DNA of 64,000 bases from a virus: positions 32,001 through 96,000 of the IMG/VR virus record IMGVR_UViG_3300035696_001556. One strand, given 5' to 3'. A model generated the notes under the pieces. The model did not search any database and had not been told where the DNA came from. It was given only the letters and a program-made list of their open reading frames with translations. Numbering within the stretch: position 1 is the first letter of the stretch; each line of letters begins with the position of its first letter. This document shows positions 7,280 to 35,483 of this stretch, one piece after another. The translations under genes and the position numbers were made by a program.

Positions 7280-7353
7280 TCGAGGGATACAGGTTATACC
7301 CGCCAATAAGTTTTGGATAGGGTGAGTTTCACAAATCTTAAGGAGGTTTTACC

Positions 7354-18577: not shown

Positions 18578-19012
18578 ATGGTATACGACTATAAGTGTAT
18601 AAAATGCGGGAACGTTGAAGAACAGTACCACGGCATGAACGAGACCCCAGAATTTTTTTGTTCTAAATGTGATAGTCCCATGGAAAGGATATTCACTATT
18701 AATAGAACTGGATTCATTATTCGAGGAGAAGCTCCCAGCAAAGTAGTCAAAGAACAGCGATACAGACAAAAACATAATGCTGATTTGAGTGTAAAGCAGG
18801 TCGAACGTTATGGAACAGGCCCTAAGCCCGTTCCGAATGTGGGTGGGGAAGAGGTAGGCTCCTGGTCCGAAGCTGCCAAATTAGCAAAGGATAAAGGCCT
18901 CAATACATCTTCTTACGAACCCATGATCGCCAAGGAAAAAGCTACAAGTAAAATATCTGGTATAAATGATAGCGCGTGGAAAAAAGTCAAAGAAGCAAAA
19001 GAAAAAGTATAA
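18578..19012 (+). CDS. FmdB-family zinc-ribbon protein
   Basis: YDYKCIKCG...E...H.M....FCSKC...MERI; GGAGG RBS. Confidence 0.75.
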   Translation: MVYDYKCIKCGNVEEQYHGMNETPEFFCSKCDSPMERIFTINRTGFIIRGEAPSKVVKEQRYRQKHNADLSVKQVERYGTGPKPVPNVGGEEVGSWSEAAKLAKDKGLNTSSYEPMIAKEKATSKISGINDSAWKKVKEAKEKV

Positions 19013-19109: not shown

Positions 19110-19283
19110 ATGAAGCGTACAAACATACATCTGACGGAAGATGAGATTAAGAATCTCGACAAGATATCGGAGCGTTCGGAATTGAAAAAAGCTGAACTTA
19201 TCCGAAGAGCCGTTGATGATTTCATTGAGAATTATAAAATTTATGGTTTGACAATAAAAGGTATAACAGGAGTAGTGAGATGA
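19110..19283 (+). CDS. CopG/ribbon-helix-helix DNA-binding protein (57 aa, not in ORF track)
   Basis: MKRTNIHLTEDEIKNLDKISERSELKKAELIRRAVDDFI; stop overlaps the glycosyltransferase ATG (ATGA). Confidence 0.8.
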   Translation: MKRTNIHLTEDEIKNLDKISERSELKKAELIRRAVDDFIENYKIYGLTIKGITGVVR

Positions 19284-22200
19284 CCACAGATAGTAAATTA
19301 CTTAGCCTGAATCTTATCGTAGGCCCCGGTGAAGAAAAGGAATTAAAGCGATGTTTAGAGTCTTGTAAAGGAGACCTCTTCGATGAGATTTGTGTCACGG
19401 TTGCTACTCCAGATCCAAGTGAATCCCTTACGGCTATAGCCCTCGAGTATACCACAAATGTTACCTATTTCAAATGGATAAAGGATTTCTCTGCCGCGAG
19501 AAATTTCAACTTTGCTCAATCACATTGTACACATGTGCTTTGGTTGGATGCAGACGACGTCATCAAGCCTGATAATTATCAAAAGCTTCTAGCGCTGAAA
19601 CCGTCCCTTGCTGGTTTCGATATTATTTTGCTTCCCTATGTCTATGCTCACGATGACAAAGATAACCCTGCAGTAGTTCTACCTAGAGAGCGTATAATCA
19701 AAAATTGTCCAGAGATTTCCTGGCACGATCCTATTCATGAATATTTGAACATGGAACCACAGTTCAAGATGAAAAAAGAAGAGAACATTTTCATAGACCA
19801 TTACAGGACAAAGCCATTTAATCCAAAAAGAAATTTAGACCTTTTAAAAATAGAATATGAGAAGCCTAACTGTTCCGCTAGGATAAAGTTCTATTATGGC
19901 AAAGAACTTGCGGATAACAACGAATGGGATGCAGCTGTTCCAGTCCTTGAGCAATTAATAAATTCCGGAGAGGGCTTCAGGGATAATCTGGTGATAGCAT
20001 GCATAAAATTGTCTAGATACTATCACACAAAGAAAAATTACAATGCTGCGAAAGCCATAGCTCTTAAAGGTATAAGTTTCAGTAACTGCTATGCAGAAAA
20101 CTATCTTCTTTTGGGAGATGTTTATTGGGAACAAAAAGACAGGGATAATGCGACAAAATATTATTTGGAAGCCATGACAAAGAAAGTTGGTACCGCAGGG
20201 ATGTCTCAAGAGGCAGATTATTATAGATTCCTACCGGCATGGAGACTGGCCCAGGTATACCGAGAAATGTATGACTTCAAAAAAGCTTTAAAATACTGCG
20301 ATATAGCGATAGAATGTAAGCCGGATTCGAAGGAGTTGAAAGATTATCGTAATGACCTGGTAAGAAGCTCTTCCGCAGTAAAAACAGATCTTGTTATTAA
20401 AGATGAGGTTGAAAAAGCTTTTGAGGATTTGGCTAAAAAAATGAATCTCCACATGGAAGTTGAAACTAACAACATAGAGTATGCTAAATTGAAGATCAGT
20501 AAAATAATGAAAATGAAAATTGCTTGGATGCTCCCTTCTCTAAATATGGCCGAGCCTTCTACAAGAATAAGAAGAATCAATATACATAAGTATTTTGAAA
20601 AAGTCGGGACAGAAAGTGTCATTGTCGATAATTATAGAGGAAAAAATATATATGAGTTAAGGAATAAAGTAGCTGATTCAGATGTGGTTATTTTTACAAT
20701 ATATGGTTTTGAAGAATTAGAGCTGATGAAATACTTCAAGTCTTTAGGTAAAAAAATAATTTTTGATTTCAATGAGGCTATTTTTGGATATCCACTGCAA
20801 CATGAGTGTTTTAATCAAACCGATGTCGTTGTTACATGTTCAACAGTCCTTGCAGAAATGACCGCCAAAAGCGGATACACTAAACCCATAGCAGTCATAA
20901 AAGATGCTGTGGAAGACACACCAGACAAGCCGTCTGCAGTTTATGAGAATAGATATGAGAAGCCTAAAGCACTTTACATAGGTATGGGAGGTAACAGCTT
21001 TCTCGCTTCGGAATATCTTAAGGATGCAATCGATAGGGCTGGATATGATTTGATAATGATAACTGAATGGGATAATGCTACCAAGAAATGGGACCTTAAT
21101 ACCTGGCCTAAAGATATGTGTGCCTGCGATGTGGTGCTATGCCCTCAAAGGGTGGACGTCCAGCCAGCTAAAAGTAATGTCAAGGTTACAACCGCTATGG
21201 ATCTTGGTATGCCGGTCATAGCTTCTCCTCTCCAAGCATACAAGGAAATTATCAAGGATGGAGAGAATGGGTTTCTGTGTGATAAACAAGAGGAGTGGTA
21301 TAACGCCCTTATTAAACTCAAGGATCCGGAACTCAGAAAAAAAATAGGATTGGCCGGTAAAAACTCTATAGATGAATATTCTTTGGAGAGTATCGCCAAC
21401 AACTGGAGGATGCTGCTGGAAACAGTAGTATATGGACGTGTAAAATCCGTAATAGACAAAGAGGAGATAAAAGAAAGCGAGACACCAGAAAAAGCAAGAG
21501 ATCAAGTAGATATTATAATCACAAACTACAATAATGTCGAGTATCTTAAACTATGTGTCAGTTCTATAATGATGAATACTCTCCACCCATTTAATCTGAT
21601 TATTTCTGATGCAGGTAGTGATAAAGAAACGTGGGATTATCTTAACAGCTTAAAAGGTGTCACCATTTTAGGTAAACAGGGAGAACGTAAAAATTTCTCC
21701 CAGACTTGTAACGCAGGCATAGGTCAATCTACGACCAAATATTTTGTCATAATGAATTCAGACTTGATAGTATCAAAATGCTGGTTAACTCCTCTCGTTG
21801 AGAAAATGAACGGCATTAACAGGTTGGCAGCTTGTGGAGTCCTATCTAATTGTGATAGGGGTTGGTTACATGGGGTGCCTGGAAAACCTACATATCCTAT
21901 GAAGCTTCCTAAAGCAGATATAGAATTAGTACCAGGAATGAAGTATGACCAGATTAAACCGCATCTAGATGAGCTATGTAGTTTCATGCAGGAATCTAAT
22001 AAAAATAATGCTGGAAAATATATAAAACAAGATTGGGTGGCGGCTTATTGCACGATTTTTGCAAAGAGCGCTTTAGAAGAAGTTGGATATTTTGATACTC
22101 AATTCAAAAACGGCTGTGAGGATCTCGATTTGTGCAGAAGATTAAGTAATTGCGGATATGAGATAGGTCAAGCTATAGACTCTTTTGTGTTTCACTTCGG

Positions 22201-24670
22201 AGGTGTCTCTAGAGGAGCCTATCAATCTGAAAATAGAGAGTCTTACGATAAAGAAGATCAAGAGAATCATTTAATGTTTCAGAGGAAGTGGGAAAGACAG
22301 AAAGTTGTAATCTGGACTGGTCCAGCATGGGAACCATGGTCGAAAAAAGAAGTAGATAAAGGGATGGCAGGGTCTGAGACTTGGGCAACTTATTTAGCTG
22401 AAGCTTTTGCTAGAAAAAATTATGAAGTTACTATCTATAATGATATCCCTGGGGATAAGAATGGCTATATTTTGGAGCCCGTAGAGGGACTCAATAATCC
22501 TGTAAAATACAGGGATCATACTAGATTTAATGAGGATATCCAGTTCCAATATGTGGATTATCTGATAAGCTCCAGAAGTCTTGAAGCCATAAAAGCGAAT
22601 GTACATACTCATCACAGATATGTCATGATCCACGATATTTGGATTTCGGGAGACCCTAATTTTGATATCATGTCCTGGAAGATTGATGGATATGCTTACT
22701 TAAGTGAATGGCACAAACAGTTTTTATTGCAGCACCATAAGATACCGGAAAATAAGATGTTTTTAACTGCTAATGGTGAAAATTTTAAAAATTATGAGGA
22801 TGTAGATAGCTATGTTAAAAAGAATCAAGCTGTCTACAGTTCGAGTCCGGACAGAGGACTTTACGAACTTTTAACTGTTTTGCCAGTAATAAGAGAAAGC
22901 GTGCCAGATTTTCAGATAGTTGTAGCATATGGTTTTTATAACTGGGAATCTATGTGCAAAGCTAGAAAAGATGAAAAAGGATTACAAGCTATAGCTACCA
23001 TAAAAAAAGCCATGGAGCAGCCAGGAGTAGTTTACGTGGATCGGATAGATAAAAAGACTTTGGCTAAATACCAGAAAGAATCTAAAGTTTGGTTGTATCC
23101 TACATGGTTTAGCGAAACACAGTGCTGCCTTCCTGGTACAAAAATTGTAACTAATAGTGGTTTAAAAAATATAGAAGATGTTACCTCAGAAGATTGTGTA
23201 TATACACATAAGGCTAATTATAAAAAAGTGTCTAAAGCCATGTCCAGAGAGGCAGATGAAGACATTTATGAGATAAAAGTAGAATATTTAAAAGACCCAT
23301 TAAGAGTAACTGGGGAACATCCTATTTATGTTCTACAAAAAAAGAATATAAAATGTTTGAGAATTAGTCATATGGTATGTACAAAGAGAGGGGATCATTG
23401 TAAAACTGATTTTTGTTATTCTAGCCATTATGGTAAAAAATATTATACACCAGGAGCTTGTAAAAATTTAATAGAGAACAAAAATCCTTGTTGGTTAAAA
23501 TCTTCAGAGTTGCATGAAAAAGATTATTTAATATATCCTATCAACAAACTAAACAAGGAATTGGAAGATTTCTCTAATTTTGTTGTTAGTGATAAGCTAA
23601 TTGATGGGGTTATCCGAACAAATAAAACAAAAAGGGGTAGGCCACACGGTATTGAAAATTTCACGATGAATGAAGACTTTTTGGAACTGTGTGGATGGTA
23701 TGTCTCTGAAGGCTGCTTCGATTCGATATCAAGAATCCATTTTGCCCTCAATAAAAAAGAAGAAAAAGAAGCAGTTTTTATAGAAACCCAACTTCAAAAA
23801 TTGAAGTTAAAAACAAAAAGATACTACGCGAAAGATACTAAATCTTTGAGCGTCTCCACTAGTTCCGTAGTGTTAGGTAGGTTTTTTGTGGATAATTTTG
23901 GTTCAGGTGCTGAAAACAAACATATACCTGAATGGATTAAAAATTTAGGACCACAATACCTTAAATACTTTTTGAAAGGTATACTAAAAGGTGATGGTAG
24001 TAAAAATGTTGGATGTACAGTTATTAACTCTGCTAGTGAAAATTTGATATATGATTTATTTGATATACTTTTGAAATTTAAATGTGTATCTTCTTTGGGT
24101 AATTTTGAAAAACCCAGACTTTATAAAATTAATGGAAAAGTTATGAGAGACTATACAGAAAAGTTAAAAGGGTATAGTCTGTCGTGCTCCATGTCACAAA
24201 ATCCAGAATTATTTAATTTTATTGGTTTTAAGGCTGTTGCGTCAAAAAAAATAAGTATTCACGGATTTTTTGACGAGGACAATGTTTATTTGCCTATTCG
24301 TAAAATATCAAAAAGTAGATATGTAGGTAAAGTCCACAATCTTGAGGTGAAAGAGGATAACTCCTATATTGCCAATGGTGTGACAGTTCATAACTGTATA
24401 ACCGCAACTACAGCTGGTTTGTCAAAATCTGCTATAGTTACTTCTAAATATGCCGGTTTAATTACCACTGTTGGAGATTCTGGCATACTTTTAGAGGGAA
24501 GCAGCACGTCTGCCGAGTATCTCAATAAATTCACTGAAGAAGCCATTAAACTTCTTAAAGACGAAGATTATAGAAGAACATGGGCTGAAAAGGCCTGGAA
24601 TAAGATGCAAATGTATTCTTGGGATAAAATAGCCAATGGATGGATAGAACAATTTAACAAGTTTAAATAA
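19280..24670 (+). CDS. giant multidomain glycosyltransferase (GT2-TPR, GT4-like, GT2, GT4-like), intein-containing
   Basis: DFSAARN...WLDADD...IHEY (SunS/SgtA-like GT2), TPRs, GMPVIASP...DGENGFL, second GT2 (MNSD, EDLDLC, HFGGVS), YSSSPDRGL...YPTWFSET. Confidence 0.9.
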   Translation: MTTDSKLLSLNLIVGPGEEKELKRCLESCKGDLFDEICVTVATPDPSESLTAIALEYTTNVTYFKWIKDFSAARNFNFAQSHCTHVLWLDADDVIKPDNYQKLLALKPSLAGFDIILLPYVYAHDDKDNPAVVLPRERIIKNCPEISWHDPIHEYLNMEPQFKMKKEENIFIDHYRTKPFNPKRNLDLLKIEYEKPNCSARIKFYYGKELADNNEWDAAVPVLEQLINSGEGFRDNLVIACIKLSRYYHTKKNYNAAKAIALKGISFSNCYAENYLLLGDVYWEQKDRDNATKYYLEAMTKKVGTAGMSQEADYYRFLPAWRLAQVYREMYDFKKALKYCDIAIECKPDSKELKDYRNDLVRSSSAVKTDLVIKDEVEKAFEDLAKKMNLHMEVETNNIEYAKLKISKIMKMKIAWMLPSLNMAEPSTRIRRINIHKYFEKVGTESVIVDNYRGKNIYELRNKVADSDVVIFTIYGFEELELMKYFKSLGKKIIFDFNEAIFGYPLQHECFNQTDVVVTCSTVLAEMTAKSGYTKPIAVIKDAVEDTPDKPSAVYENRYEKPKALYIGMGGNSFLASEYLKDAIDRAGYDLIMITEWDNATKKWDLNTWPKDMCACDVVLCPQRVDVQPAKSNVKVTTAMDLGMPVIASPLQAYKEIIKDGENGFLCDKQEEWYNALIKLKDPELRKKIGLAGKNSIDEYSLESIANNWRMLLETVVYGRVKSVIDKEEIKESETPEKARDQVDIIITNYNNVEYLKLCVSSIMMNTLHPFNLIISDAGSDKETWDYLNSLKGVTILGKQGERKNFSQTCNAGIGQSTTKYFVIMNSDLIVSKCWLTPLVEKMNGINRLAACGVLSNCDRGWLHGVPGKPTYPMKLPKADIELVPGMKYDQIKPHLDELCSFMQESNKNNAGKYIKQDWVAAYCTIFAKSALEEVGYFDTQFKNGCEDLDLCRRLSNCGYEIGQAIDSFVFHFGGVSRGAYQSENRESYDKEDQENHLMFQRKWERQKVVIWTGPAWEPWSKKEVDKGMAGSETWATYLAEAFARKNYEVTIYNDIPGDKNGYILEPVEGLNNPVKYRDHTRFNEDIQFQYVDYLISSRSLEAIKANVHTHHRYVMIHDIWISGDPNFDIMSWKIDGYAYLSEWHKQFLLQHHKIPENKMFLTANGENFKNYEDVDSYVKKNQAVYSSSPDRGLYELLTVLPVIRESVPDFQIVVAYGFYNWESMCKARKDEKGLQAIATIKKAMEQPGVVYVDRIDKKTLAKYQKESKVWLYPTWFSETQCCLPGTKIVTNSGLKNIEDVTSEDCVYTHKANYKKVSKAMSREADEDIYEIKVEYLKDPLRVTGEHPIYVLQKKNIKCLRISHMVCTKRGDHCKTDFCYSSHYGKKYYTPGACKNLIENKNPCWLKSSELHEKDYLIYPINKLNKELEDFSNFVVSDKLIDGVIRTNKTKRGRPHGIENFTMNEDFLELCGWYVSEGCFDSISRIHFALNKKEEKEAVFIETQLQKLKLKTKRYYAKDTKSLSVSTSSVVLGRFFVDNFGSGAENKHIPEWIKNLGPQYLKYFLKGILKGDGSKNVGCTVINSASENLIYDLFDILLKFKCVSSLGNFEKPRLYKINGKVMRDYTEKLKGYSLSCSMSQNPELFNFIGFKAVASKKISIHGFFDEDNVYLPIRKISKSRYVGKVHNLEVKEDNSYIANGVTVHNCITATTAGLSKSAIVTSKYAGLITTVGDSGILLEGSSTSAEYLNKFTEEAIKLLKDEDYRRTWAEKAWNKMQMYSWDKIANGWIEQFNKFK
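23123..24394 (+). mobile_element. intein (424 aa) with LAGLIDADG homing endonuclease
   Basis: CCLPGT block A, TGEHP block B, LCGWYVSEG and LKGILKGDGS, VHNLEV...VTVHN followed by +1 Cys. Confidence 0.95.
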
Positions 24671-24719
24671 ACCGTACTTATCTAGCCTTCCTGTTATTAT
24701 CCGCTGTATCTATAGCCCG

Positions 24720-24737
24720 TAATACTTTACTAATATT
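24720..24737 (+). promoter_or_regulatory. putative late promoter motif
   Basis: TAATACTTTACTAATATT. Confidence 0.55.
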
Positions 24738-24782
24738 TTTATTTCTAACAGAACCTATAAACCATTTGATAAAGGACTTCAG

Positions 24783-25196
24783 ATGATTGCTCCTAACGTG
24801 CATATATTTACTAACGCTCTAAAAATGATGGTTTATTGCGATTTCTTTTCATTTTACTCGGTTTATACAGCATACAATCTTTATTATTCATCGAGTTCTA
24901 GTTGGAGTGGAACACTTATCGGTAAATTTCCGAATGTCATAGATCTTCTATATTCAAAAAATCACGTTATGATTCCATTCACCAGGCCAGTCCCAGAAGC
25001 TTCTTCTTATTATCTGAGATTGGTTGGTGTCTTTTCCGGTGGAAGTGAAGATAGTAGCAATCCTGGCGCTATTAAGTATGTGCCAGCGGTATCCGAATCA
25101 CTTCCATTATACAAGCCAGTTCAGATTGAGGGCTTTGATGCAACAGATAATGTCTACAGGCCCGTCCTGGTTGATACCACTGGGAAACTTTTGTAA
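24783..25196 (+). CDS. putative structural protein (FN3/Ig-like)
   Basis: YNLYY...YYLRLVGV beta-strand pattern. Confidence 0.5.
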   Translation: MIAPNVHIFTNALKMMVYCDFFSFYSVYTAYNLYYSSSSSWSGTLIGKFPNVIDLLYSKNHVMIPFTRPVPEASSYYLRLVGVFSGGSEDSSNPGAIKYVPAVSESLPLYKPVQIEGFDATDNVYRPVLVDTTGKLL

Positions 25197-25209
25197 CATT
25201 ATCGCAAGA

Positions 25210-25227
25210 TGATACTCTACTAATATG
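25210..25227 (+). promoter_or_regulatory. putative late promoter motif
   Basis: TGATACTCTACTAATATG. Confidence 0.55.
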
Positions 25228-25274
25228 TGTTGAGTATTATCAGGATTAAACTGAATTTTTAACAGGAGGAAAAA

Positions 25275-25784
25275 ATGAGTGCCCCTTTAGTTAACACATT
25301 GAAGGTTTCCTATCTGGGAACCAATGTCGGAAAGATTTATCTTTCCGACCTGCAAAAGCGTCTTGGACTAGGTGGAGCCCAGGAAGGTGACTGGTACGGT
25401 GGTCAGGACGAGTACATCGTTTGGGGAGAAAAGAAAGTGCTTTTGCTTACTGGTGATGTTATTACCAGTATGACAAACGGTATTATAGCCCACTTCTCTA
25501 ATCCGACCAACACTGAGTGGAATACTTTGAATGGTGCCCCGCTTAGTCTTGATGTTGGCCTTCACACGGTTTACGAGAACCTACCAAGTATTCTGTTCAT
25601 GACCGGAACACTTCTTGGTCCTGCAGGTGGAGCCACAGGGATATGGGGTGGAACAGGCCTTGATTATGCGTGGTCTGATCAGTATCTTTCACAGTTGGCA
25701 ATAGACCAATGGGGTCCTGCAGTGAACGGCCCAACAGGAACTTGGGCAGGTCAAACAGGCTGGTATTACGGGAATGCGATCTAA
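25275..25784 (+). CDS. putative virion protein with x-T-G-rich C-terminus
   Basis: AGGAGG RBS, upstream motif and downstream terminator; MTG, ATG, GTG, PTG, QTG tripeptides. Confidence 0.7.
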   Translation: MSAPLVNTLKVSYLGTNVGKIYLSDLQKRLGLGGAQEGDWYGGQDEYIVWGEKKVLLLTGDVITSMTNGIIAHFSNPTNTEWNTLNGAPLSLDVGLHTVYENLPSILFMTGTLLGPAGGATGIWGGTGLDYAWSDQYLSQLAIDQWGPAVNGPTGTWAGQTGWYYGNAI

Positions 25785-25802
25785 TTGGTGAGTCAATATC
25801 TA

Positions 25803-25840
25803 GAGGCTATCGGAATGTGATAGTTCTGGTAGCCTTTTTT
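25803..25840 (+). terminator. intrinsic terminator
   Basis: AGGCTATCGGAA-loop-TTCTGGTAGCCT followed by a T tract. Confidence 0.75.
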
Positions 25841-25862
25841 GCATATACAATGTAAATAGCAT

Positions 25863-26156
25863 ATGGGGTATAAAATGGGAATCCATGGAGATCTTATACA
25901 GACAGACGAAGGCACGAAGACTTGTGATTTATATCTGGCAGCATTTTTTGTATCGGTGGATTGCCAAGTTCTAAAAACATCACGCGAAGGAAAAAAAGTT
26001 TACTTTTTGTTTGACAAAAACGAAATGATAGAGAAACTGAAAGTCTCTTATTTTACCAGGCAAGCTAAAGTGGACGCATTAACATATGCAGATAATATCA
26101 AATCACTTAAAAGCTTGTGTGCCAGTATAGTACACCAGGATATACCGAGGGCTTAA
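25863..26156 (+). CDS. DUF5659-like small phage protein
   Basis: DLYLAAFF...VYFLF...VDALTY..NIKSLK pattern recalled for this family. Confidence 0.6.
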   Translation: MGYKMGIHGDLIQTDEGTKTCDLYLAAFFVSVDCQVLKTSREGKKVYFLFDKNEMIEKLKVSYFTRQAKVDALTYADNIKSLKSLCASIVHQDIPRA

Positions 26157-26159
26157 TCT

Positions 26160-26423
26160 ATGTTTGATACATATCAAGGGTCAATAGGATCGATATCCCC
26201 GGCCTTTGGTGGATATAGCGTAGATTTTTATATAAACATTGACCGCGATCCAGGGATTACCGGAACTGCCGGATATACTGGGCCTGATTCTTATACAGGT
26301 CCCGGAGCAGCAGGAGTTACGGGTACGGGGTCTTTGGAACTCTGGAAAGTTGCTACAGGCCTCAATCATGGTGCGACAGGAACCTTTACGAACAATAGAT
26401 CCGATGAAGAAATCTATTTTTAA
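26160..26423 (+). CDS. small x-T-G-rich protein
   Basis: 87 aa with GITG, GYTG, SYTG, GVTGTG, VATG, GATG. Confidence 0.65.
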   Translation: MFDTYQGSIGSISPAFGGYSVDFYINIDRDPGITGTAGYTGPDSYTGPGAAGVTGTGSLELWKVATGLNHGATGTFTNNRSDEEIYF

Positions 26424-26435
26424 AGGGTAGAAAAT

Positions 26436-26948
26436 ATGTTACGCGTATCCGCTATAGAGGCCGCTAAGTTAGTTGTAGCGGCTTCATTTGTTTTAAAAGA
26501 CGATGTCAAGTTCGAAGGATTCGATGATGTCGGTGAGACTGAATTGTCTCATACCGTTAATGTTCGCAAAAACGGTGAGATGTCCGAGTACGAACAAGAA
26601 TTCAATCAACTGGATATATGGGCTGATCTGTCTTTGGGATTTACCGGAGAACCGCCAAACAGTTATAGAGTGTTTAATTCCATGATAGTTGACTGGGTCG
26701 ATGAACATGAAGATGAACTTAAAAAAATAATAAATCCAAAGCTTATACCATTTTTGAAAGAAAAATTTCCAGATTTGGATGTGTCGGATCTTAAAGAAGA
26801 TTTTGATGATTATATTTTTGAAGACCAGGTAGATTATGTTGCGGGTATTGATGAAGAGGATGGAAGGCTTCATTTTTGTATTGAGATGGTATTAGACATT
26901 GAGAATGAGGATGATGATAAAAATTTTGATAAAAAAGAGGAATCATAA
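26436..26948 (+). CDS. acidic hypothetical protein (TnpB target gene, replaced 3' end)
   Basis: 170-aa ORF; its C-terminal region is repeated in divergent form at 28197..28331. Confidence 0.75.
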   Translation: MLRVSAIEAAKLVVAASFVLKDDVKFEGFDDVGETELSHTVNVRKNGEMSEYEQEFNQLDIWADLSLGFTGEPPNSYRVFNSMIVDWVDEHEDELKKIINPKLIPFLKEKFPDLDVSDLKEDFDDYIFEDQVDYVAGIDEEDGRLHFCIEMVLDIENEDDDKNFDKKEES

Positions 26949-28197
26949 AAATAATTAATATTATGATAAATCGAGGATATAGAGTAGAAATAAAACCCAA
27001 CAACAAACAAAAGACTTTATTAAATAAGGCTTTTGGCGTGGCTCGCTTTGCCTATAATTGGGGCTTAGCGAGGCGTATAGAACTCTACAAAAATGAAAAG
27101 AAATCTTTGTCTGCTATAGATCAACACAAAGAATTGTGTATTCTTAAAAAAGAACAATTTCCTTGGATGTATGAAGTTTCAAAATGCGTTCCCCAAGAGG
27201 CTTTAATAGACTTAGAGGATGCATATAATAAGTTTTATAAATCTAATAAAAATTTTAGGTATCCTAAATTCAAAACCAAACACAAATCAAAAGATTCTTT
27301 TAGAGTATCTTCTGGAAATTTTTATATAACTGAATCTTCTATAAAGATACCAAAAATAGGACAAATAAAACTAAAAGAAAAGAGATATATACCAACAGCA
27401 GGTATAAAGTATAACTCAATCACAGTATCTAAAGACGCAAATAAATATTTTGTGTCCGTCCAGTGTGAAGTAGAAACCCCAGGTGTTACTGAGAAAAAAG
27501 AAACAGTTCTGGGTATTGATTTGGGGATAAAAACTTTACTTGTTTGCTCAAACGGTGAAATTTTTGATAACCCCAAAACAACCTATAAATATGAGAAAAA
27601 ACTGGCTCATGCCCAGAAAAACTTCAGTAGAACTAAAAAAGGATCTAAAAACAGAACCAAAGCCAATTTGAAAGTTCAAAAAATATACAGAAAAATTAAA
27701 AATAGTCGCATGAATAATCTTCACAGAGCTACCAGTGCCGTGGTGAAAACCAAGCCAAGATACATAGTTCTTGAAGATTTAAATGTAAAGGGTATGACTA
27801 AGAATCATCATTTAGCTAAAGCTGTTTCAGATGGATCTTTTGGGGAAATCTATAGGCAATTTAAATATAAAGCTTTATGGTATGGTTCTGAGATCATTGA
27901 CGCAGATAGATTCTATCCTAGTTCCAAATTATGTAGAAAGTGTGGACAGATTAAGGATGATTTAACCCTAGAGGATAGAGTCTATACCTGTGAGTGTGGC
28001 CATACCGAAGACAGAGATTTAAATGCGTCTATTAATTTAGAGGAATATGGTTTGAATACCCTCAGTTCGAGGGGAATTAAAGCCTGTGGAGAAAGTGTAA
28101 GACTTTTAGATGCTATTGATCTAGAAGCAGTTTCTACGAACCAGGAAGAAAACAATACAACTAATTTAGTTAGTTGTATATAAGTTTTTCAGAACGG
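26817..28197 (+). mobile_element. transposase-less IS607-type TnpB cassette carrying a recoded host-gene 3' end
   Basis: Right end ...TTTTTCAGAACGG; no tnpA; left boundary uncertain, at or upstream of the start of the duplicated segment. Confidence 0.65.
26963..28183 (+). CDS. tnpB: RNA-guided endonuclease TnpB (IS200/IS605/IS607 superfamily)
   Basis: N-terminal HTH (ARFAYNWGL), RuvC-I GIDLG, RuvC-II VLEDL, Zn finger CRKC...CEC, RuvC-III DRDLNAS; D-E-D triad intact. Confidence 0.95.
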   Translation: MINRGYRVEIKPNNKQKTLLNKAFGVARFAYNWGLARRIELYKNEKKSLSAIDQHKELCILKKEQFPWMYEVSKCVPQEALIDLEDAYNKFYKSNKNFRYPKFKTKHKSKDSFRVSSGNFYITESSIKIPKIGQIKLKEKRYIPTAGIKYNSITVSKDANKYFVSVQCEVETPGVTEKKETVLGIDLGIKTLLVCSNGEIFDNPKTTYKYEKKLAHAQKNFSRTKKGSKNRTKANLKVQKIYRKIKNSRMNNLHRATSAVVKTKPRYIVLEDLNVKGMTKNHHLAKAVSDGSFGEIYRQFKYKALWYGSEIIDADRFYPSSKLCRKCGQIKDDLTLEDRVYTCECGHTEDRDLNASINLEEYGLNTLSSRGIKACGESVRLLDAIDLEAVSTNQEENNTTNLVSCI

Positions 28198-28217
28198 AGG
28201 ACCAGGTAGATTATATG
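28056..28217 (+). ncRNA. putative omegaRNA (TnpB guide RNA) overlapping the tnpB 3' end, guide from about 28198
   Basis: GCCTGTGGAG scaffold-like motif, terminal hairpin ATACAACTAA-tttag-TTAGTTGTAT (28155-28179), end motif AACGG; boundaries approximate. Confidence 0.65.
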
Positions 28218-28331
28218 CCTGGCATTGATGACGAGGATAATCGACTTCGTTTCTCTATAGAGTTGGTGTTAGATATCGAGGACGATGAAGTAGCACCAGG
28301 GGATAAAGAAGAGCCAAAAACTAAGGAGTAA
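28197..28331 (+). pseudogene. orphaned 3' end (44 codons) of the 26436 gene
   Basis: EDQVDYMPGIDDEDNRLRFSIELVLDIE vs EDQVDYVAGIDEEDGRLHFCIEMVLDIE (21/28 identical); contains the AAGGAG RBS of the next gene. Confidence 0.85.
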
Positions 28332-28337
28332 AATACA

Positions 28338-29621
28338 ATGAGCTTTATTGGACAGGGATTAACAGGTTTATCTCTTTATGCCAGCGTCACAGGATTAGTT
28401 TCTGGATATACTGGATATGGCGAACACGGTCTTACTGGTTTTTTCTATACTGAAGATGGTTCAGATGTAGGGAATACTGGTCTGTGGCGTATTAAGGGTT
28501 CAAAAGTGGTATCTGGAGACTCCTTTGAAGTTACAGGAGTTTCTGCCGAATATGTCTCTTCGCTTACCATTACTAACGATGGTAATGGATCAGCAACAGG
28601 ACCTAGTGTTGTAATAGATGGTGTGGCAACTCCTATCCTTGCCGTTCCAAATACTAATTATCAGTTTGCGCAATGGCTAGGTATCAGCGGAGCTATGTCC
28701 TTCAGCAGTCCTACAGGAGCTTCTTCCAATGTTACAGTTACTGGTGGAGACGCCACAATAGAAGGTACTTTTAAGTACCTTACATATTCATTGACGATAA
28801 CTAATGATGGTCACGGATCAGCCACAGGTCCTAGTACTGTAAACAGTGGCGTAGCAACCCCTATTCTTGCTGTTCCCAACGCCAACTACAGCTTCGCACA
28901 ATGGTTAGGTATCAGTGGAACTTCAACTTTCAGCAATCCTACTGGTGCTTCTAGTAATGTGACGGTCGTTGGCGGAAATGCCACCATAGAAGCTACCTTC
29001 AATCATAACACATATCTTCTCACAATGGCCAATGACGGAAACGGTACAACCGTTCCGACTACTGAAATAGTCTGGTCTGCTACAGGTATTAATGTTCTCG
29101 GTGTCCCAAATCCTGGTTATAGCTTCAATCAATGGGGGGTCACTGGAGGTGTAGTCCTTAGTGGTGCCACTGGATCTTTTGCTGTTGCAACGCTTACTGG
29201 CAATGCTACAGTAACAGCTACTTTTAGTAACAACACGTACACACTGACTATGGCTAATGATGGAAACGGTACAACTGTTCCATCTGGGGCTACAGGAGTA
29301 TTGTCTCACACACCTTTTAATATTTCTGCAGAACCAAGTGCAGACTATGTATTCAGCAATTGGACAGTTGCAGGGGATGCAGTAGTAGCTTCTCCAACAT
29401 CAGTTGTGACTACAGTACAACTTATAGACAGTAGTGATACAGTTACAGCTCATTTCACATTTTCGCAAGCTCGTGAAGGTCCTAATTTTAATACCAGAGA
29501 TTGGGACAGATCAAAACCAGATTTCTTTCAGGCAAATCCATATGCAGGTCAAATAGCACAGATTTGGGATAATCCAAGAGACGGTGAACGTGTCGCAGAA
29601 GAACGTCAGTATCAAGAGTAA
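28338..29621 (+). CDS. surface/virion protein with four divergent InlB B-repeat-like domains
   Basis: Four ~75-aa repeats LT(I/M)xNDGxG...Y.F..W...ATxxAxF; x-T-G-rich. Confidence 0.75.
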   Translation: MSFIGQGLTGLSLYASVTGLVSGYTGYGEHGLTGFFYTEDGSDVGNTGLWRIKGSKVVSGDSFEVTGVSAEYVSSLTITNDGNGSATGPSVVIDGVATPILAVPNTNYQFAQWLGISGAMSFSSPTGASSNVTVTGGDATIEGTFKYLTYSLTITNDGHGSATGPSTVNSGVATPILAVPNANYSFAQWLGISGTSTFSNPTGASSNVTVVGGNATIEATFNHNTYLLTMANDGNGTTVPTTEIVWSATGINVLGVPNPGYSFNQWGVTGGVVLSGATGSFAVATLTGNATVTATFSNNTYTLTMANDGNGTTVPSGATGVLSHTPFNISAEPSADYVFSNWTVAGDAVVASPTSVVTTVQLIDSSDTVTAHFTFSQAREGPNFNTRDWDRSKPDFFQANPYAGQIAQIWDNPRDGERVAEERQYQE

Positions 29622-29644
29622 GAAAACTTAACAAGGAGGATTTT

Positions 29645-29785
29645 ATGTCTACACCCGCAGATGGCCCAGATGTTTATAAGCCGCATGTAGATATCAATGG
29701 ACCAGCAATAACAACGATACGTAACGAAGTTACCACGAAGAGTGGAACCGTTATGGGTCAAAAAGAAGACTACATGGTCAATTAA
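29645..29785 (+). CDS. small protein (46 aa, not in ORF track)
   Basis: AAGGAGGA RBS; MSTPADGPDVYKPHVDING... Confidence 0.65.
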   Translation: MSTPADGPDVYKPHVDINGPAITTIRNEVTTKSGTVMGQKEDYMVN

Positions 29786-29814
29786 TGAATTAGACCTAAA
29801 TCGTTCTTAAGAAG

Positions 29815-29848
29815 AGCCGAAGGACAGAGATGTCTTTCGGTTTTTTAT
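29815..29848 (+). terminator. intrinsic terminator
   Basis: AGCCGAAGGACA-gaga-TGTCTTTCGGTT followed by a T tract. Confidence 0.85.
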
Positions 29849-29866
29849 TGATAGTCTATTAATAAA
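29849..29866 (+). promoter_or_regulatory. putative late promoter motif
   Basis: TGATAGTCTATTAATAAA immediately after the terminator. Confidence 0.55.
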
Positions 29867-29903
29867 ATACCATATATAAATAAAGAAATCACAAAAAGGG
29901 ATA

Positions 29904-30171
29904 ATGGTGGCTACATATAGGTACAGGAACAGGCGCATGGGGAGCGGCTTCTGGCGGTTCCATGTCAGCAAACGGTGCACCTTTCTCATGTACTGTAAGT
30001 GCTGCAGGTACAATAGCACAATTTACTGTTTATGACTGTAATGGTAATCCAGTCTTTTCTGGAAGTGTTACATTGACAGGATCAGGTGGGGATATTCAAC
30101 TGTCATCTGTCACTTATAATGTAGGTGACACCATAGACATAACAAGTTTAACTTACACGGCACCAAATTAA
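29904..30171 (+). pseudogene. frameshifted, probably internally deleted small virion protein
   Basis: RBS+ATG at 29904 (MVATY) is out of frame with the protein-like body GTGTGAWGAASGG...DITSLTYTAPN, whose frame has a stop at 29902. Confidence 0.55.
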
Positions 30172-30197
30172 AATATGACCCTCCAAGGCGGTGAAGT

Positions 30198-32810
30198 ATG
30201 AAAACATTAGATCCTTCAGGGATTACTGGGCCTAATTTTCCATACCCTCCAACAAATGGTCAGATATTCGTTGATGAGACCGTAATCCCTCCCGTTACAT
30301 ATGTGTTCAATGCATTTAGAGAAGCATGGTATACATTTAGTGTAGAAGAGAATGCATGGATCATAGCGTATCAAGTATATACTTTTACTGGACCTATTGG
30401 CATACAGGGAATAACTGGATCTGATGGAGTTACTGGATCAATTGGAGTTCAGGGTGTCACAGGTTCTGAAGGAATTACAGGGCCTTCTGGATATGGTATA
30501 AGCGGAGTAACAGGTCAAAGTGGAATCACCGGATCAATAGGAATTCAAGGTATAACTGGCCAAAGCGGAATAACAGGATCAGTTGGAATTACAGGAAGTC
30601 AGGGAACGCAAGGAATAACTGGACCTAGTGGAATTACAGGCCCAAGTGGAGTTACAGGATCTACTGCTCCTACAGGAATTCAAGGAATAACTGGACCTAC
30701 AGGAAATCAAGGTATAACTGGATCAAATGGAATAACAGGTTCTGTCGGAATAACTGGATCTATTGGAATAACAGGTTCTGTCGGAGTAACTGGATCTTTT
30801 GGGATAACTGGATCTGGTGGGATAACTGGATCTGGTGGGATAACTGGATCTACTGCTCCTACAGGAATTCAGGGTATAACTGGATTTCAGGGAATTACTG
30901 GAACTGTTGGAATACAAGGTACAACTGGCACAAATGGAGTAACTGGATCAGTAGGGATAACAGGATCGGTAGGAATCACTGGGACTGGTGGAATAACAGG
31001 TTCTACTGCACCTACGGGGATTCAAGGTATAACTGGAAATAAAGGAGTACAAGGGGATACCGGATCTAATGGAATTACTGGTTCTGTTGGAGTTACTGGT
31101 TCTGTTGGAGTTACTGGTTCTGTTGGAGTTACTGGTTCTATTGGAATAACAGGTTCTACTGCACCTACGGGGATTCAAGGTATAACTGGAAATAAAGGAG
31201 TACAAGGGGATACCGGAAATAATGGAGTAACTGGATCTGTTGGAGTGACTGGATCTGTAGGAGTAACAGGTTCAGTAGGAATAACTGGTTCAACTGCACC
31301 TACTGGGGTTCAAGGAATAACTGGACCAACTGGAATACAAGGTATAGCTGGATCTAATGGAGTAACTGGATCAGTTGGATTAACTGGATCAGCTGGGGTT
31401 ACCGGCTCTATAGGAGTAACTGGCTCGATAGCACCTACAGGAATTCAAGGTATAACTGGACCTACTGGAATTCAAGGTATAACTGGAAATAACGGAGTAA
31501 CTGGATCTGTTGGAATTACAGGTTCAACTGCTACTACTGGAATTCAAGGTATAACTGGATTCCAGGGAATTACAGGATCTGTTGGAATACAAGGAATAAC
31601 TGGTCAAAATGGTATTACAGGTTCAGTTGGAGTAACTGGATCAGTTGGAATAACGGGATCTAGTGGAATAACCGGTTCAACAGCACCTACAGGAATTCAA
31701 GGTATAACTGGATTACAAGGAATTACTGGAACAGTTGGAATACAAGGAATAACTGGACAAAATGGAATAACTGGATCAACAGGTATTACAGGATCTGTTG
31801 GAGTCACTGGGTCACTTGGAATAACAGGATCAACTGCTCCGACTGGAGTTCAAGGTATAACTGGTACTAAAGGAATTCAAGGAGATACTGGCCCTAATGG
31901 AGTAACAGGCTCTGTTGGAGTTACCGGGTCAGTCGGAGTTACTGGCTCTGCTGGAATAACAGGTTCAACTGCTCCTACTGGAATTCAAGGTATAACTGGA
32001 TTCCAGGGAATTACCGGAGCAATTGGAATTCAAGGTATAACTGGACAAAATGGAGTAACAGGATCAGTAGGAGTTACAGGTTCAGTTGGAATAACTGGGT
32101 CTAGTGGAATTACCGGATCCACTGCTCCTACTGGAATTCAAGGTATAACTGGATTTCAAGGGATAACTGGTGCTGTTGGAATTCAGGGAATTACAGGAAA
32201 TAATGGAGTAACAGGATCAGTAGGAGTTACAGGCTCTATTGGAATTACTGGTTCTGTTGGTATAACGGGTTCAACCGCTCCTACAGGGATCCAAGGAATT
32301 ACTGGTCCTACTGGAATACAAGGAACAACAGGAAACAACGGAGTTACAGGCTCTGTAGGTATAACAGGCTCTATAGGAATCACAGGGTCTGTAGGGGTAA
32401 CTGGATCAGTTGGAGTTACTGGTTCTACCGCACCTACAGGAATCCAAGGAATTACTGGAAATCAAGGTATAACTGGAGCTTCAGGGCTGGCTGTACCAAG
32501 AGTTACTACTATCTCTTCGGCTTCTACTATAACTCCAAACACTAATACAACCGATGAAATTATGATTACTGCACTAGGAGTGACCGGTTATTTTGCCACA
32601 CCAACAGGTAACCCAAGTGAAGGACAAAGATTATTATTTAATATCTTAGACAACTCATCGGCGCAAGGATTACTGTTCTCTTCTTCCTATATCCCCATGG
32701 GAACGACTTTACCGACAACCACAACCGCTGGTAAATATATGTATTTGGAATTTGTATATAATCGCACACTTACTGATTGGTGCCTGTTAGCTTCAGCGAC
32801 ACAATCTTAA
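30198..32810 (+). CDS. collagen-like fibre protein
   Basis: N-terminal FPYPPTNGQ anchor, about 700 aa of (G-x-T-G-x-x)n, globular C-terminal domain. Confidence 0.9.
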   Translation: MKTLDPSGITGPNFPYPPTNGQIFVDETVIPPVTYVFNAFREAWYTFSVEENAWIIAYQVYTFTGPIGIQGITGSDGVTGSIGVQGVTGSEGITGPSGYGISGVTGQSGITGSIGIQGITGQSGITGSVGITGSQGTQGITGPSGITGPSGVTGSTAPTGIQGITGPTGNQGITGSNGITGSVGITGSIGITGSVGVTGSFGITGSGGITGSGGITGSTAPTGIQGITGFQGITGTVGIQGTTGTNGVTGSVGITGSVGITGTGGITGSTAPTGIQGITGNKGVQGDTGSNGITGSVGVTGSVGVTGSVGVTGSIGITGSTAPTGIQGITGNKGVQGDTGNNGVTGSVGVTGSVGVTGSVGITGSTAPTGVQGITGPTGIQGIAGSNGVTGSVGLTGSAGVTGSIGVTGSIAPTGIQGITGPTGIQGITGNNGVTGSVGITGSTATTGIQGITGFQGITGSVGIQGITGQNGITGSVGVTGSVGITGSSGITGSTAPTGIQGITGLQGITGTVGIQGITGQNGITGSTGITGSVGVTGSLGITGSTAPTGVQGITGTKGIQGDTGPNGVTGSVGVTGSVGVTGSAGITGSTAPTGIQGITGFQGITGAIGIQGITGQNGVTGSVGVTGSVGITGSSGITGSTAPTGIQGITGFQGITGAVGIQGITGNNGVTGSVGVTGSIGITGSVGITGSTAPTGIQGITGPTGIQGTTGNNGVTGSVGITGSIGITGSVGVTGSVGVTGSTAPTGIQGITGNQGITGASGLAVPRVTTISSASTITPNTNTTDEIMITALGVTGYFATPTGNPSEGQRLLFNILDNSSAQGLLFSSSYIPMGTTLPTTTTAGKYMYLEFVYNRTLTDWCLLASATQS
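30390..32480 (+). repeat. collagen-like tandem repeats with ~153-nt higher-order unit
   Basis: GGAATAACTGGA-type repeats; about 13 GSTAPTG-type interruptions. Confidence 0.9.
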
Positions 32811-32822
32811 AGGGAAGATAAT

Positions 32823-33236
32823 ATGGCAGAACTATTAATTAAAGCAATTTCAGCAAATCATTCAGATCCTATTAAGAATGAGCAAGGATGCTATAAGCGT
32901 GGCGACATAGTTGATGTTCGTCCTGATGGATTTGGATGGGGTAATTCAGAAGGACTTCCAAATTTTGTCAGGATCGGGGTCACGGGAGTGGATGCTTCAT
33001 CCATTAAGAATTTCATGGTGTCTCATTATGGCATGACTGGGATCCAGGGAGTGACTGGACTTTTCGAGACCAGACAGGTGGTGCTTAAACGCAGGCTATG
33101 GAATGTTCTTCTTGATGATGCGTCCATGCCCCAGACAATAAAGGACTCCTTGAATAGCACTGGAAGAGTGACAGTCACAAAGGATCAGATACAGGGCTTT
33201 GTGCAGAATAAATCAACATCAGAGACATGGAAATAA
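32823..33236 (+). CDS. fibre-associated hypothetical protein
   Basis: 137 aa; YKRGDIVDVRPDG..WG; contains GVTG and GMTGIQGVTG. Confidence 0.7.
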   Translation: MAELLIKAISANHSDPIKNEQGCYKRGDIVDVRPDGFGWGNSEGLPNFVRIGVTGVDASSIKNFMVSHYGMTGIQGVTGLFETRQVVLKRRLWNVLLDDASMPQTIKDSLNSTGRVTVTKDQIQGFVQNKSTSETWK

Positions 33237-33245
33237 AAGGGAATT

Positions 33246-34208
33246 ATGGCTACCGTCATTACGAAAACCATAAAGCCTTCCGGTGGCGATTATACCAGCC
33301 TCTCTAACTGGGAAGCAGGGGAACAGGCTAATCTGGTAGCTTTAAATGAAATAGCGGTCGCTGAATGTTATTCGATGACTGATACTACAAAAGTTAATAT
33401 AAATGGATGGACTACGGGAGCAAATAATTATATAGAAATCTATACCCCCCTCAGTGAAAGACACAAAGGAGTCTGGGATGATAGTAAGTATATATTATCT
33501 ATTGCTAGTGCTTACAGTTATGGATTAATACTAAATGTTTCAAATATATATATAGAAGGTTTACAGATAAGTATAACGGGAGATTTCTCCTATGAAGGCG
33601 GAATAGGGTGTGAAGATAGTACAGGATTTTACAAAATATCTAAAAACATTATACGAGGAGTTTTGAGTAGTGGGGTAGAATCATGTTTTGCAATATCAAC
33701 AACCAGTGGTGCATACATATGGAACAATATTATATATGGATGGAAAGAAGTGACAGGAAATATTAATGGGGTATTTCTAACAAATGGCCCTGGATATGCT
33801 TATAATAACACAATCGTAAATTGTTTTGATGGTGCATATAATCCTTACGGTGGAGGGATAACACTGGTAAATAATATTTTTTCTTCTTGTACTAACGATG
33901 TAGATGATACTTCATATGCAAGTGTAACAGCTACTTACTGTTCGACTACTAATGACAACACAAAAGGACTAACTCCTTCTGGTACTGGCAACAGGTTTTC
34001 GCAGTCCTTTGCCTTCGTGAATCCAGGCTCTAATAACTATCAACTTGCCCAAAATGATACAGGAGCAAAGGGTTGGGGTGAGACCGATCCGGGATCTGGT
34101 CTCTTCTCCGACGACATCAATGGTCTGACCCGCACAGTTCCTTGGGATATCGGGGCTGAAAAATATGTAGCTCCAGCAGGTTCTCTATGGTTTTTTAATT
34201 GGGGTTAA
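33246..34208 (+). CDS. right-handed beta-helix (pectin-lyase-like) fibre/receptor-binding protein
   Basis: GGDYTSLSNWE start, Asn-ladder IWNNII/AYNNTI/VNNIF, C-terminal WDIGAE. Confidence 0.75.
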   Translation: MATVITKTIKPSGGDYTSLSNWEAGEQANLVALNEIAVAECYSMTDTTKVNINGWTTGANNYIEIYTPLSERHKGVWDDSKYILSIASAYSYGLILNVSNIYIEGLQISITGDFSYEGGIGCEDSTGFYKISKNIIRGVLSSGVESCFAISTTSGAYIWNNIIYGWKEVTGNINGVFLTNGPGYAYNNTIVNCFDGAYNPYGGGITLVNNIFSSCTNDVDDTSYASVTATYCSTTNDNTKGLTPSGTGNRFSQSFAFVNPGSNNYQLAQNDTGAKGWGETDPGSGLFSDDINGLTRTVPWDIGAEKYVAPAGSLWFFNWG

Positions 34209-34211
34209 TCC

Positions 34212-34229
34212 TATTAAACTATTAATACT
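34212..34229 (+). promoter_or_regulatory. putative late promoter motif
   Basis: TATTAAACTATTAATACT. Confidence 0.45.
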
Positions 34230-34252
34230 ATCAGTTATATAGAGGTAATCGT

Positions 34253-35483
34253 ATGGCTTTTCCTTCAAGCCCATCAGACGGCCAAACATATATAAATGAA
34301 TGCTCTAGGGACTGTATTTATTTTTAATGCATCTAGAGGTGTATGGTTAGTAGACTCACAAGGTGCGACTGGAGCTGCTGGTGTAACCGGATCCGCTGGA
34401 GTTAATGGAGCAACTGGTCAAAATGGAATTACAGGTTCGGTTGGTATAACTGGATCTATTGGAGTCACCGGATCTCCAAGCTTTCAAGGTATAACTGGAT
34501 TAAATGGGGTAACCGGAGCTTTTGGGGTCACAGGATCTTCTGGGCCTACTGGTGCAAATGGAGTAACAGGATCAGTAGGAGTAACTGGATCTTTAGGAGT
34601 CACTGGATCTACTGGTCTTCAAGGTATAACTGGATTAAATGGAGTAACTGGGTCTCTAGGAGTAACAGGAGCATTAGGAGTAACTGGATCATTAGGAGTA
34701 ACTGGATCATTTGGGATAACTGGCACACAATATCTTTCTATATATACAGGGGCTAATGGAATAACAGGGGCTAATGGAATAACAGGATCTTTGGGAGTAA
34801 CCGGGTCATTAGGAGTAACAGGGTCCATAGGGATAACAGGTGTCTATGGATCTAATATACAAGTTCTAACATTTGGAACCGTATCTTATACACCAACATC
34901 AGGCACAACTAGAGCACATTTAGATTTGTGGGGAGGTGGAGGAGCTGGAGGAGGATCAACTGGAACGGGATCCGTGGGTGGTGGAGGAGGATCCGGTGGA
35001 TATGCAGCATACTTTTTCACTGGCATGGGATCTGGACCTTATACGGTTGCAGTAGGTGTAGGTGGAACAGGAATAGCTGGAATGCCAGGATGGACAGGTG
35101 GTAATACTACATTTAATACTGGCTCTGTTACAATTACGGCATATGGTGGATCAGGTGCTGGTTGTACTTCTGCTGCAACAAACGTTATAGCTGGAGGAGC
35201 AGGCGGTACAGTATCAACTAATGGAACAGTAAATGGAGCAGGACAACCCGGATTACCGGCTGTTGTAACCGCAACAGGAAATATATATTTGTCTGGTAGT
35301 GGCGGATCGACGTCATTAGGTGGTGGAGGAGTTGGCATAGTTAATTCAGTTGGTTCACCTGGAAATGATGCAGTCGCTAATACAGGGTCAGGTGGTGGCG
35401 GAGCTGGTTTGACTGGAATAGCAGCTCAGCGTGGTGGTAATGGAGCAGCTGGAAGAATAGTTATAACGGAATATAGAGGATGA
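34253..35483 (+). pseudogene. second collagen-like/glycine-rich fibre gene, frameshifted by a 4-nt duplication
   Basis: GAGGT RBS + ATG 34253 MAFPSSPSDGQTYIN; AATGAATG at 34295-34302; deleting one AATG fuses it to ORF 34296..35483. Confidence 0.75.

Follow-up and report, generated by a model that had tools for sequence, protein, structure and literature searches.

SgtA of Clostridioides difficile, a protein of 358 residues, consists of a GT-A domain (residues 1–260) and four tetratricopeptide repeats (TPRs) and is encoded just upstream of bclA3, the gene for a collagen-like glycoprotein of the exosporium (PMC7157674). In vitro, it places β-O-linked N-acetylglucosamine (GlcNAc) on the threonine of short synthetic GPT collagen peptides (PMC7157674). 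GmaR, the flagellin O-GlcNAc transferase of Listeria monocytogenes, also carries TPRs (PMC9638930). Here, we analysed a stretch of 64,000 nucleotides (the window; bases 32001–96000 of the 173,494 bp IMG/VR contig IMGVR_UViG_3300035696_001556) in which an SgtA-like domain forms the first of four glycosyltransferase (GT) domains in a single phage enzyme. The domain architecture of this enzyme, the kinship of its first module, the linkage of that module to Gly-x-Thr collagen genes, selection on a G-x-T-G motif and the co-occurrence of enzyme and motif are directly supported, and we propose that the phage probably sugar-coats its own collagen-like fibres.

The initial annotation had described an enzyme of 1796 amino acids (aa) with four GT domains. 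Both the open reading frame (ORF), at 19280–24670, and the four-domain architecture were borne out by a Pfam scan and an alignment of homologues. The layout comprises a GT2 domain with TPRs (residues 1 to ~390), the C-terminal half of a GT-B/GT1 domain (608–706), a second GT2 domain (743–973), a GT4 domain (from 1031) and an intein (1282–1705). Its parts are as follows.

19280..20479, + strand: module 1, residues 1–400; GT2 catalytic domain (~8–175), then a TPR/helical-repeat domain (~182–387).
20480..21484, + strand: module 2, residues 401–735; divergent GT-B domain (GT1/GT4-like) without a canonical EX7E motif.
21485..22309, + strand: module 3, residues 736–1010; second GT2 (GT-A) domain.
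22310..23122, + strand: module 4, N-extein, residues 1011–1281; GT-B domain of the GT4 type, as far as the invariant Glu of an EX7E-like motif (…SETQ).
23123..24394, + strand: intein, 424 aa, residues 1282–1705; splits the EX7E-like motif of module 4.
24395..24670, + strand: module 4, C-extein, residues 1706–1796; corresponds in the alignment to the last 90 residues of homologues that have no intein.

More than 100 metagenomic huge-phage proteins of ~1375 aa share 45–72% identity with the enzyme across the whole extein, and many are encoded on contigs of 200–470 kb. Catalytic-type residues are invariant in all four domains when the enzyme is aligned with 13 homologues. Module 1 carries a DxD motif, D90-A-D92-D93, which is invariant in alignments of 14 and of 13 homologues. 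Module 2 matched the Pfam families Glyco_trans_1_4 and Glycos_transf_1 at residues 608–706 and, weakly, TreT, PglA-like and BshA-like GT-B enzymes in the Protein Data Bank (PDB); it has many invariant residues (14 homologues aligned), and a relative (G008) encodes a stand-alone paralogue of it. The match of module 3 to PF00535 at residues 745–869 is the source of most of the E-value of 3.5e-26 for the whole protein. Its PDB matches were chondroitin synthase, GalT1, a TagF-associated GT2 and SpsA, and its invariant residues include N826-x-D828 and E947-D948-x-D950. Module 4 is identified by a Pfam Glyco_transf_4 match and by NCBIfam GT4 matches on the C-terminal part of an intein-free homologue (P0001), and the first Glu of its EX7E motif, E1279, is invariant.

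The insertion in module 4 shows all the hallmarks of an intein: it begins with Cys1282, ends with His1704-Asn1705 and is followed by Cys1706, and it matched Intein_splicing (PF14890) with an E-value of 4.9e-11. It is missing from most homologues, including P0001, in which the corresponding site reads SETF|CITAVEAG (consensus of intein-free homologues, the bar marking the insertion point), and it occupies the same site in P0018; several other longer homologues probably carry it too, as suggested by intein-type Pfam matches. The spliced enzyme would measure 1372 aa. A transmembrane segment was not found in the enzyme, the maximum 19-residue Kyte–Doolittle mean being 1.54. A membrane polysaccharide synthase was also considered and set aside as improbable, the enzyme having no membrane segment.

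Module 1 resembles enzymes that modify proteins and peptides. Pfam gave GT2 matches, TPR_8 above its cut-off and several weaker TPR families at residues 186–353. An AlphaFold2 (AF2) model with a predicted local distance difference test score (pLDDT) of 91 showed a Rossmann-like GT-A fold followed by helices at 182–387. By sequence, the best PDB matches were GmaR (E 1e-10) and SunS (E 1e-9), at an identity of only 16–20%. By fold, the top six Foldseek matches of the model were SunS/ThuS structures (E 3e-17 to 6e-14, ~385 of 400 columns); generic GT-A enzymes formed the next tier at 5e-9 or worse. The first domain had been assigned to the GT2-TPR, protein-modifying type, and both rankings agree with that assignment.

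The bacterial relatives of module 1 point in the same direction. We took the 80 best bacterial homologues (28–34% identity over residues 8–350), nearly all from Bacillota, mainly Clostridia and Bacilli, and searched 8 kb around each gene for collagen genes, defined by a run of at least 8 triplets. Such a gene was found in 50 of the 80 loci, usually a few hundred bases away, and threonine occupied the Y position in 46–100% of the triplets in every one of these 50. By analogy, this linkage is the sgtA–bclA3 arrangement at the scale of a family. The kinship with SgtA itself is drawn from the architecture given in PMC7157674 and from the clostridial homologues beside GxT collagen genes.

The acceptors proposed for the enzyme lie downstream of it. 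The genes concerned are the following.

25275..25784, + strand: 25275 protein, 169 aa, non-collagen, just downstream of the GT gene; G-x-T-G at fixed positions in the C-terminal half.
26160..26423, + strand: 26160 protein, 87 aa, conserved, non-collagen and syntenic; two to four G-x-T-G sites.
28338..29621, + strand: 28338 protein, 427 aa, first gene of the fibre cassette; four InlB B-repeat (Flg_new_2) domains (PF18998, E 9e-31).
30198..32810, + strand: fibre 1, 870 aa; G-[IV]-T-G-S-x hexads, no Pro-rich triplets, globular C-terminal end.
32823..33236, + strand: 32823 protein, 137 aa, non-collagen, between the fibres; GVTG and GMTGIQGVTG, the latter three triplets in register.
34253..35483, + strand: fibre 2, collagen-like with a glycine-rich C-terminal domain; long ORF from 34296.

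The fibre genes begin 5.5 kb downstream of the enzyme. Fibre 1 has long Gly-X-Y repeats and matched Pfam Collagen (PF01391) in 13 stretches with an E-value of 9.5e-95. Fibre 2 matched Gly_rich_2, Collagen (30.5 bits against a cut-off of 27.2) and PHROG tail-fibre families. Its start had been placed at 34253, and a fibre-type N-terminus is indeed encoded there: the short frame begins MAFPSSPSDGQTYIN…, to be compared with FPYPPTNGQIFV in fibre 1. This frame is not that of the collagen ORF, which begins at 34296, in the +1 frame and straight after a TAA, so that a +1 shift near 34295–34299 is needed to join the two. The apparent loss of frame might stem from an indel in the assembly, from a genuine frameshift or from a programmed one.

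To quantify the motif, each ORF of the whole contig was shuffled and the observed number of G-x-T-G was compared with that expected. Both fibres are strongly enriched (100 vs 11.3 in fibre 1 and 29 vs 5.0 in the ORF from 34296; both p<0.001), and so are the non-collagen proteins 25275 (4 vs 0.37), 26160 (4 vs 0.33), 28338 (7 vs 0.91) and 32823 (3 vs 0.11; all p<0.001), as the initial annotation had anticipated. For 28338, the motifs are divided between the N-terminal 60 residues (4 vs 0.30, p<2e-4) and the remainder (3 vs 0.58, p=0.02). Most products of the block had been called enriched; the excess holds for about half of its ORFs. Beta-helix proteins showed no over-representation of G-x-T-G. 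The excess is specific to threonine, with GxSG, GxPG, GxDG and GxKG at 0.7–1.4x and GxAG at 1.8–1.9x in this genome, and genome-wide it still amounts to 3.45x when runs of at least 3 GXY triplets are masked. Masking from 2 triplets upwards was dropped as a control, since by its very design hardly any G-x-T-G would survive it. The codons at the Thr and Gly of the motif match the genome average, and the signal therefore lies in the protein and not in a DNA word. More than 90% of the motifs sit in 12–15 ORFs per GT-bearing genome.

Conservation of the motif is clearest in the two small families that directly follow the enzyme gene across the clade. The 120 homologues of the 25275 protein (~143 aa) contain on average 2.14 G-x-T-G vs 0.25 expected; one site is present in 118 of 120 and another in 94 of 120, with G, T and G kept, x free and G-x-S-G almost absent. 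The consensus of these sites is GDTGG and GATGYYYG, and most of the conserved sites are single words without further Gly register. The ESM Atlas offered no lead for this protein. Homologues of the 26160 protein, 57 in number, average 2.53 motifs (0.19 expected), and each of two sites is kept in 53 of 57; the 26160 protein itself contains GITGTAGYTG, three triplets in register. The 32823 protein had no homologue in the related loci that were fetched, and it is not detectably homologous to a ~100-aa ORF that, together with a ~810-aa ORF, carries the motif a few kb downstream of the enzyme in relatives. At the level of sequence, G-x-T-G is a selected motif in the non-collagen proteins adjoining the enzyme.

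The main rival explanation accepts that the long collagen-like repeats are glycosylated but limits the enzyme to them, the isolated G-x-T-G words being structural or assembly motifs, such as short segments in collagen register for nucleating or capping the fibres or for docking to them. Glycine around the non-collagen TG sites does follow a periodicity of three (3.1x at −2 and 1.5–1.8x at −8, −5, +4 and +7), the runs in 32823 and 26160 quoted above are in collagen register, the motif is not avoided elsewhere in the proteome, and the experimental precedent is entirely on collagen repeats (PMC7157674). However, single words such as GDTGG and GATGYYYG make up most of the conserved sites, the excess survives the masking of runs of at least 3 triplets, and the two families hold their place behind the enzyme throughout the clade. 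Moreover, SgtA accepts short synthetic peptides, so that a long helix is not needed (PMC7157674). On balance, we regard a restriction to collagen repeats as doubtful, though a serious contender.

The proposal that the phage glycosylates its own fibres, and possibly the isolated motifs as well, was then set against relatives with and without the enzyme. A query with the single protein retrieved no loci related to the enzyme, and an alignment query was needed. Relatives defined by a capsid protein 75–95% identical to that of the window fall into two groups, with and without the enzyme, its absence being judged with a positive control. The enzyme was not found in G001 (complete, 447,761 bp) or G002 (379,936 bp), and neither contained a GT2 or GT1 match or a collagen ORF. 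The comparison with GT-less relatives, which the initial annotation had put forward, gave a G-x-T-G ratio of observed to expected of 1.07 for G001 and 0.91 for G002, that is, no excess. Ratios for the GT-bearing G000, G006 and G007 were 6.0–7.2, or 2.5–3.9 with collagen masked. A strict (GxT)5 DNA pattern missed the collagens of this clade, which are built of the hexad G-x-T-G-S-x; they were therefore sought with the pattern (GxTGxx)2GxTG. For capsid relatives whose records span 100 kb or more, such repeats were present in 7 of 7 GT-bearing and 0 of 5 GT-less records (p=0.0013). As a separate observation, two GT-bearing relatives hold additional small GT2 genes in clusters of six to seven, at 27.7–35.5 kb in G007 and at 358–360 and 437–454 kb in G006.

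Beyond the clade, the module-1 profile matched in 13 of 46 viral records with (GxT)6, several of the matches being stand-alone proteins of 353–359 aa. Among 40 control records with (GxP)6, there was one real module-1 match and one TPR-only match (p ~1e-3 vs (GxT)6). The distance between enzyme and collagen gene was 1.6–6.5 kb in 7 of 9 phage records. Three loci deserve mention in their own right. G097 (IMG/VR 3300028840_006907, complete, 469,617 bp) encodes at 243724–248886 a second GT2-TPR paralogue in a frame of 877 aa, with a long GxT collagen gene 1.6 kb downstream of it. Near the capsid gene of the same genome, a module-1 match lies in an open frame of 697 aa, where the four-domain enzyme seems to be split. 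G094 (IMG/VR 3300034091_000548) carries at 6936–7991 a close module-1 homologue (E 1e-86) with one in-frame TGA and one TAG, which could be a broken gene or reflect another genetic code.

The genomic setting is that of a huge phage. CheckV puts the completeness of the 173,494 bp contig at only 37%, which implies a genome of several hundred kb. Nearly all genes of the window lie on the + strand. Two of them frame the block of enzyme and fibres, which therefore lies inside the structural module.

8004–8885: capsid gene.
49484–52384: tail sheath gene.

This setting bears on two further alternatives. The enzyme might act on a non-phage target, such as a host envelope polymer or host proteins, with the threonines of the fibres being a structural choice for a proline-poor collagen. 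Modules 2–4 are as similar to polysaccharide and teichoic-acid enzymes as to anything, TarP, TarS and RmlT are among the lower-ranking fold matches of module 1, phage glycosyltransferases that change the host surface are well known (PMC4691112), and many phages with GxT collagen do without the enzyme. Yet protein and peptide enzymes lead the matches of module 1 by 8 orders of E-value, genes homologous to this module show tight linkage to GxT collagen genes in phages as in bacteria, the enzyme gene lies between capsid and tail genes, the enzyme is without a membrane segment, and it has been lost along with the collagens in the GT-less relatives. We therefore consider a host target unlikely. Glycosylation of phage DNA, for example of hydroxymethylated bases as a protection against restriction, appears highly improbable. 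DNA glucosylation is the classical role of phage glycosyltransferases (PMC12619734, PMC4691112), but similarity to DNA glycosyltransferases was not found in the Pfam, PDB, fold or other searches made, module 1 with its TPRs belongs among the enzymes that act on proteins, and the gene context is structural and not one of nucleotide metabolism.

Taken as a protein-modifying system of the phage itself, the enzyme would be a soluble, self-contained O-glycosylation enzyme of a huge-phage clade, acting in the cytoplasm ahead of assembly. After the intein has spliced itself out, the SgtA-like GT2-TPR module would bind unfolded or exposed Gly-x-Thr-Gly through its TPR domain and, as an inverting GT-A enzyme, place the first sugar on the threonine; the GT-B, GT2 and GT4 domains would then add up to three more. 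We infer the attachment of the sugar, its identity, the order of the domains and the use of isolated motifs as acceptors. SunS transfers glucose. SgtA and GmaR transfer GlcNAc (PMC7157674, PMC9638930). The main acceptors would be the Pro-poor G-x-T-G-S-x collagen-like fibres, and the isolated G-x-T-G of the 25275 and 26160 families, 28338 and 32823 may serve as secondary ones. The peptide (GPT)10 forms a triple helix only when its threonine is galactosylated (PMC11923368), and glycosylation of Thr could for this reason also stabilise the proline-poor helices of the fibres.

We give an even chance to the reading in which the sugar chain is started by module 1 on the Thr of G-x-T-G and lengthened by the three remaining domains, with the fibres rather than the entire virion as the chief target. 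The wider reading is more tentative, and we would lean somewhat against it: G-x-T-G would be a portable four-residue O-glycosylation sequon, present in fibres and at fixed single sites of unrelated small virion-associated proteins and read by one four-domain phage enzyme that builds a defined oligosaccharide without host glycosylation machinery.

Several observations count against these proposals. A coat of sugar over the entire virion had been predicted, and the distribution of the motif argues against it. There is no excess in the capsid protein (8004, 0 motifs), the sheath (49484, 2 vs 1.1 expected), 33246 or 35488, nor in the 7354 protein (1 vs 0.40, p=0.34), whose AATGGVTG is not conserved in the L003 and L007 homologues. 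The globular ends of the fibres, also named as carriers of the motif, lack a significant excess (1 vs 0.08, p=0.07, for the C-terminal end of fibre 1; 4 vs 2.67, p=0.27, for that of fibre 2). Non-target proteins were searched for avoidance of the motif as a signature of a sequon, and none was found (1.1–1.5x across the remaining proteome). Some of the apparently isolated motifs seem to be short runs in collagen register and could be structural, although most are single words. The AF2 model of the 25275 family is poor (pLDDT 43) and gives no guide to the exposure of its sites. Within the enzyme, the second Glu of the EX7E motif of module 4 is replaced by Thr, as it is by Thr or Ala in some close relatives, while most homologues have Glu; this module must also be spliced free of the intein to work. 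Among the (GxT)6 viral records, a module-1 homologue was not found in 33 of 46, including 4 of 8 near-complete ones, and GxT collagen therefore does not require the enzyme. Finally, this genome has only ~28 orthologues in common with G001 and G002, so that the comparison of GT-bearing and GT-less relatives amounts to one evolutionary contrast.

The gene order around the enzyme is kept in relatives and runs from a zinc-ribbon gene through the GT gene, the 25275 family, DUF5659, the 26160 family and an acidic protein to the N-terminal part of 35488 and 38019. The zinc-ribbon protein (144 aa, 18578–19012) lies directly upstream of the GT gene and is conserved in 13 related loci. The window segment 26963–35483, comprising TnpB, 28338, fibre 1, 32823, 33246 and fibre 2, is missing from that position in relatives and is, to judge by this comparison, a variable fibre cassette. 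The TnpB gene (IS605 OrfB / Cas12f-like TNB, 26963–28183) marks the exact boundary between the conserved block behind the GT gene and the variable fibre cassette at 28338–35483. Just upstream of fibre 1, an unlisted ORF of 69 aa (29962–30171) has a weak Ig-like (Big_1) match. Self-splicing and homing elements are plentiful in the window (3156–6074, 9010–11133, 23123–24394 and 38986–41271); they comprise the GT intein, intein-like PHROG matches in a 972-aa head-module protein and two LAGLIDADG-methyltransferase genes.

If the proposal holds, some of the largest known phages coat their fibres with sugar by means of their own enzyme, with a bearing on how they recognise hosts, how stable their particles are and how well these withstand proteases or grazers. 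It would also offer a natural test of the question raised in PMC11923368, namely whether glycosylated Thr substitutes for hydroxyproline in stabilising prokaryotic and viral collagen triple helices. Were the motif a portable sequon, the system would be a complete and autonomous protein-glycosylation system in a bacterial virus, and a short sequon combined with a soluble single-chain enzyme could serve glyco-engineering. The pairing of a G-x-T-G excess with a GT2-TPR gene could mark candidate glycosylated fibres in metagenomic phage genomes.

No paper came to light in which huge phages, or the collagen-like fibres of phages, are connected with an enzyme of this kind. To our knowledge, mycobacteriophages are the only well-documented glycosylated phage particles, and their logic differs. 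According to the summary of Freeman et al. (2023) in PMC12619734, it is the C-terminal ends of their capsid and tail-tube subunits that carry the glycans. There, glycosyltransferases encoded by the phage act on proteins of its own virion, as is proposed here. The candidates here are instead fibres and small accessory proteins, the capsid and sheath being without the motif, and the enzyme architecture and motif are different; Ser/Thr-rich C-terminal tails were not seen on capsid 8004 or the sheath. Mimivirus L230 hydroxylates lysine and glucosylates the hydroxylysine on viral collagen-like proteins (PMC4691112). It is a virus-encoded multi-domain enzyme for the virus's own collagen-like fibre proteins, the part also proposed for the enzyme described here; unlike L230, the phage enzyme probably targets threonine and has no hydroxylase, and the hosts are bacteria.

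Like module 1, GmaR and SunS/ThuS (PDB 7msn, 7msp, 7msk) combine a GT2 domain with a helical-repeat domain; they act on proteins or peptides. GmaR modifies Ser/Thr of flagellin, the peptide S-glycosyltransferases SunS and ThuS modify a Cys in a bacteriocin precursor, and all three lack fusions to further transferases. SgtA–BclA3 (PMC7157674) matches the phage locus both in the order of domains, with a GT-A domain passing directly into TPRs, and in the proximity of the gene to a Gly-x-Thr collagen-like gene. Unlike SgtA, the phage module is the first of four GT domains in one chain that is interrupted by an intein and measures 1372 aa once spliced, the phage repeats are G-[IV]-T-G-S-x rather than GPT, and the phage motif is found, in addition, at single conserved positions of proteins that are not collagens.

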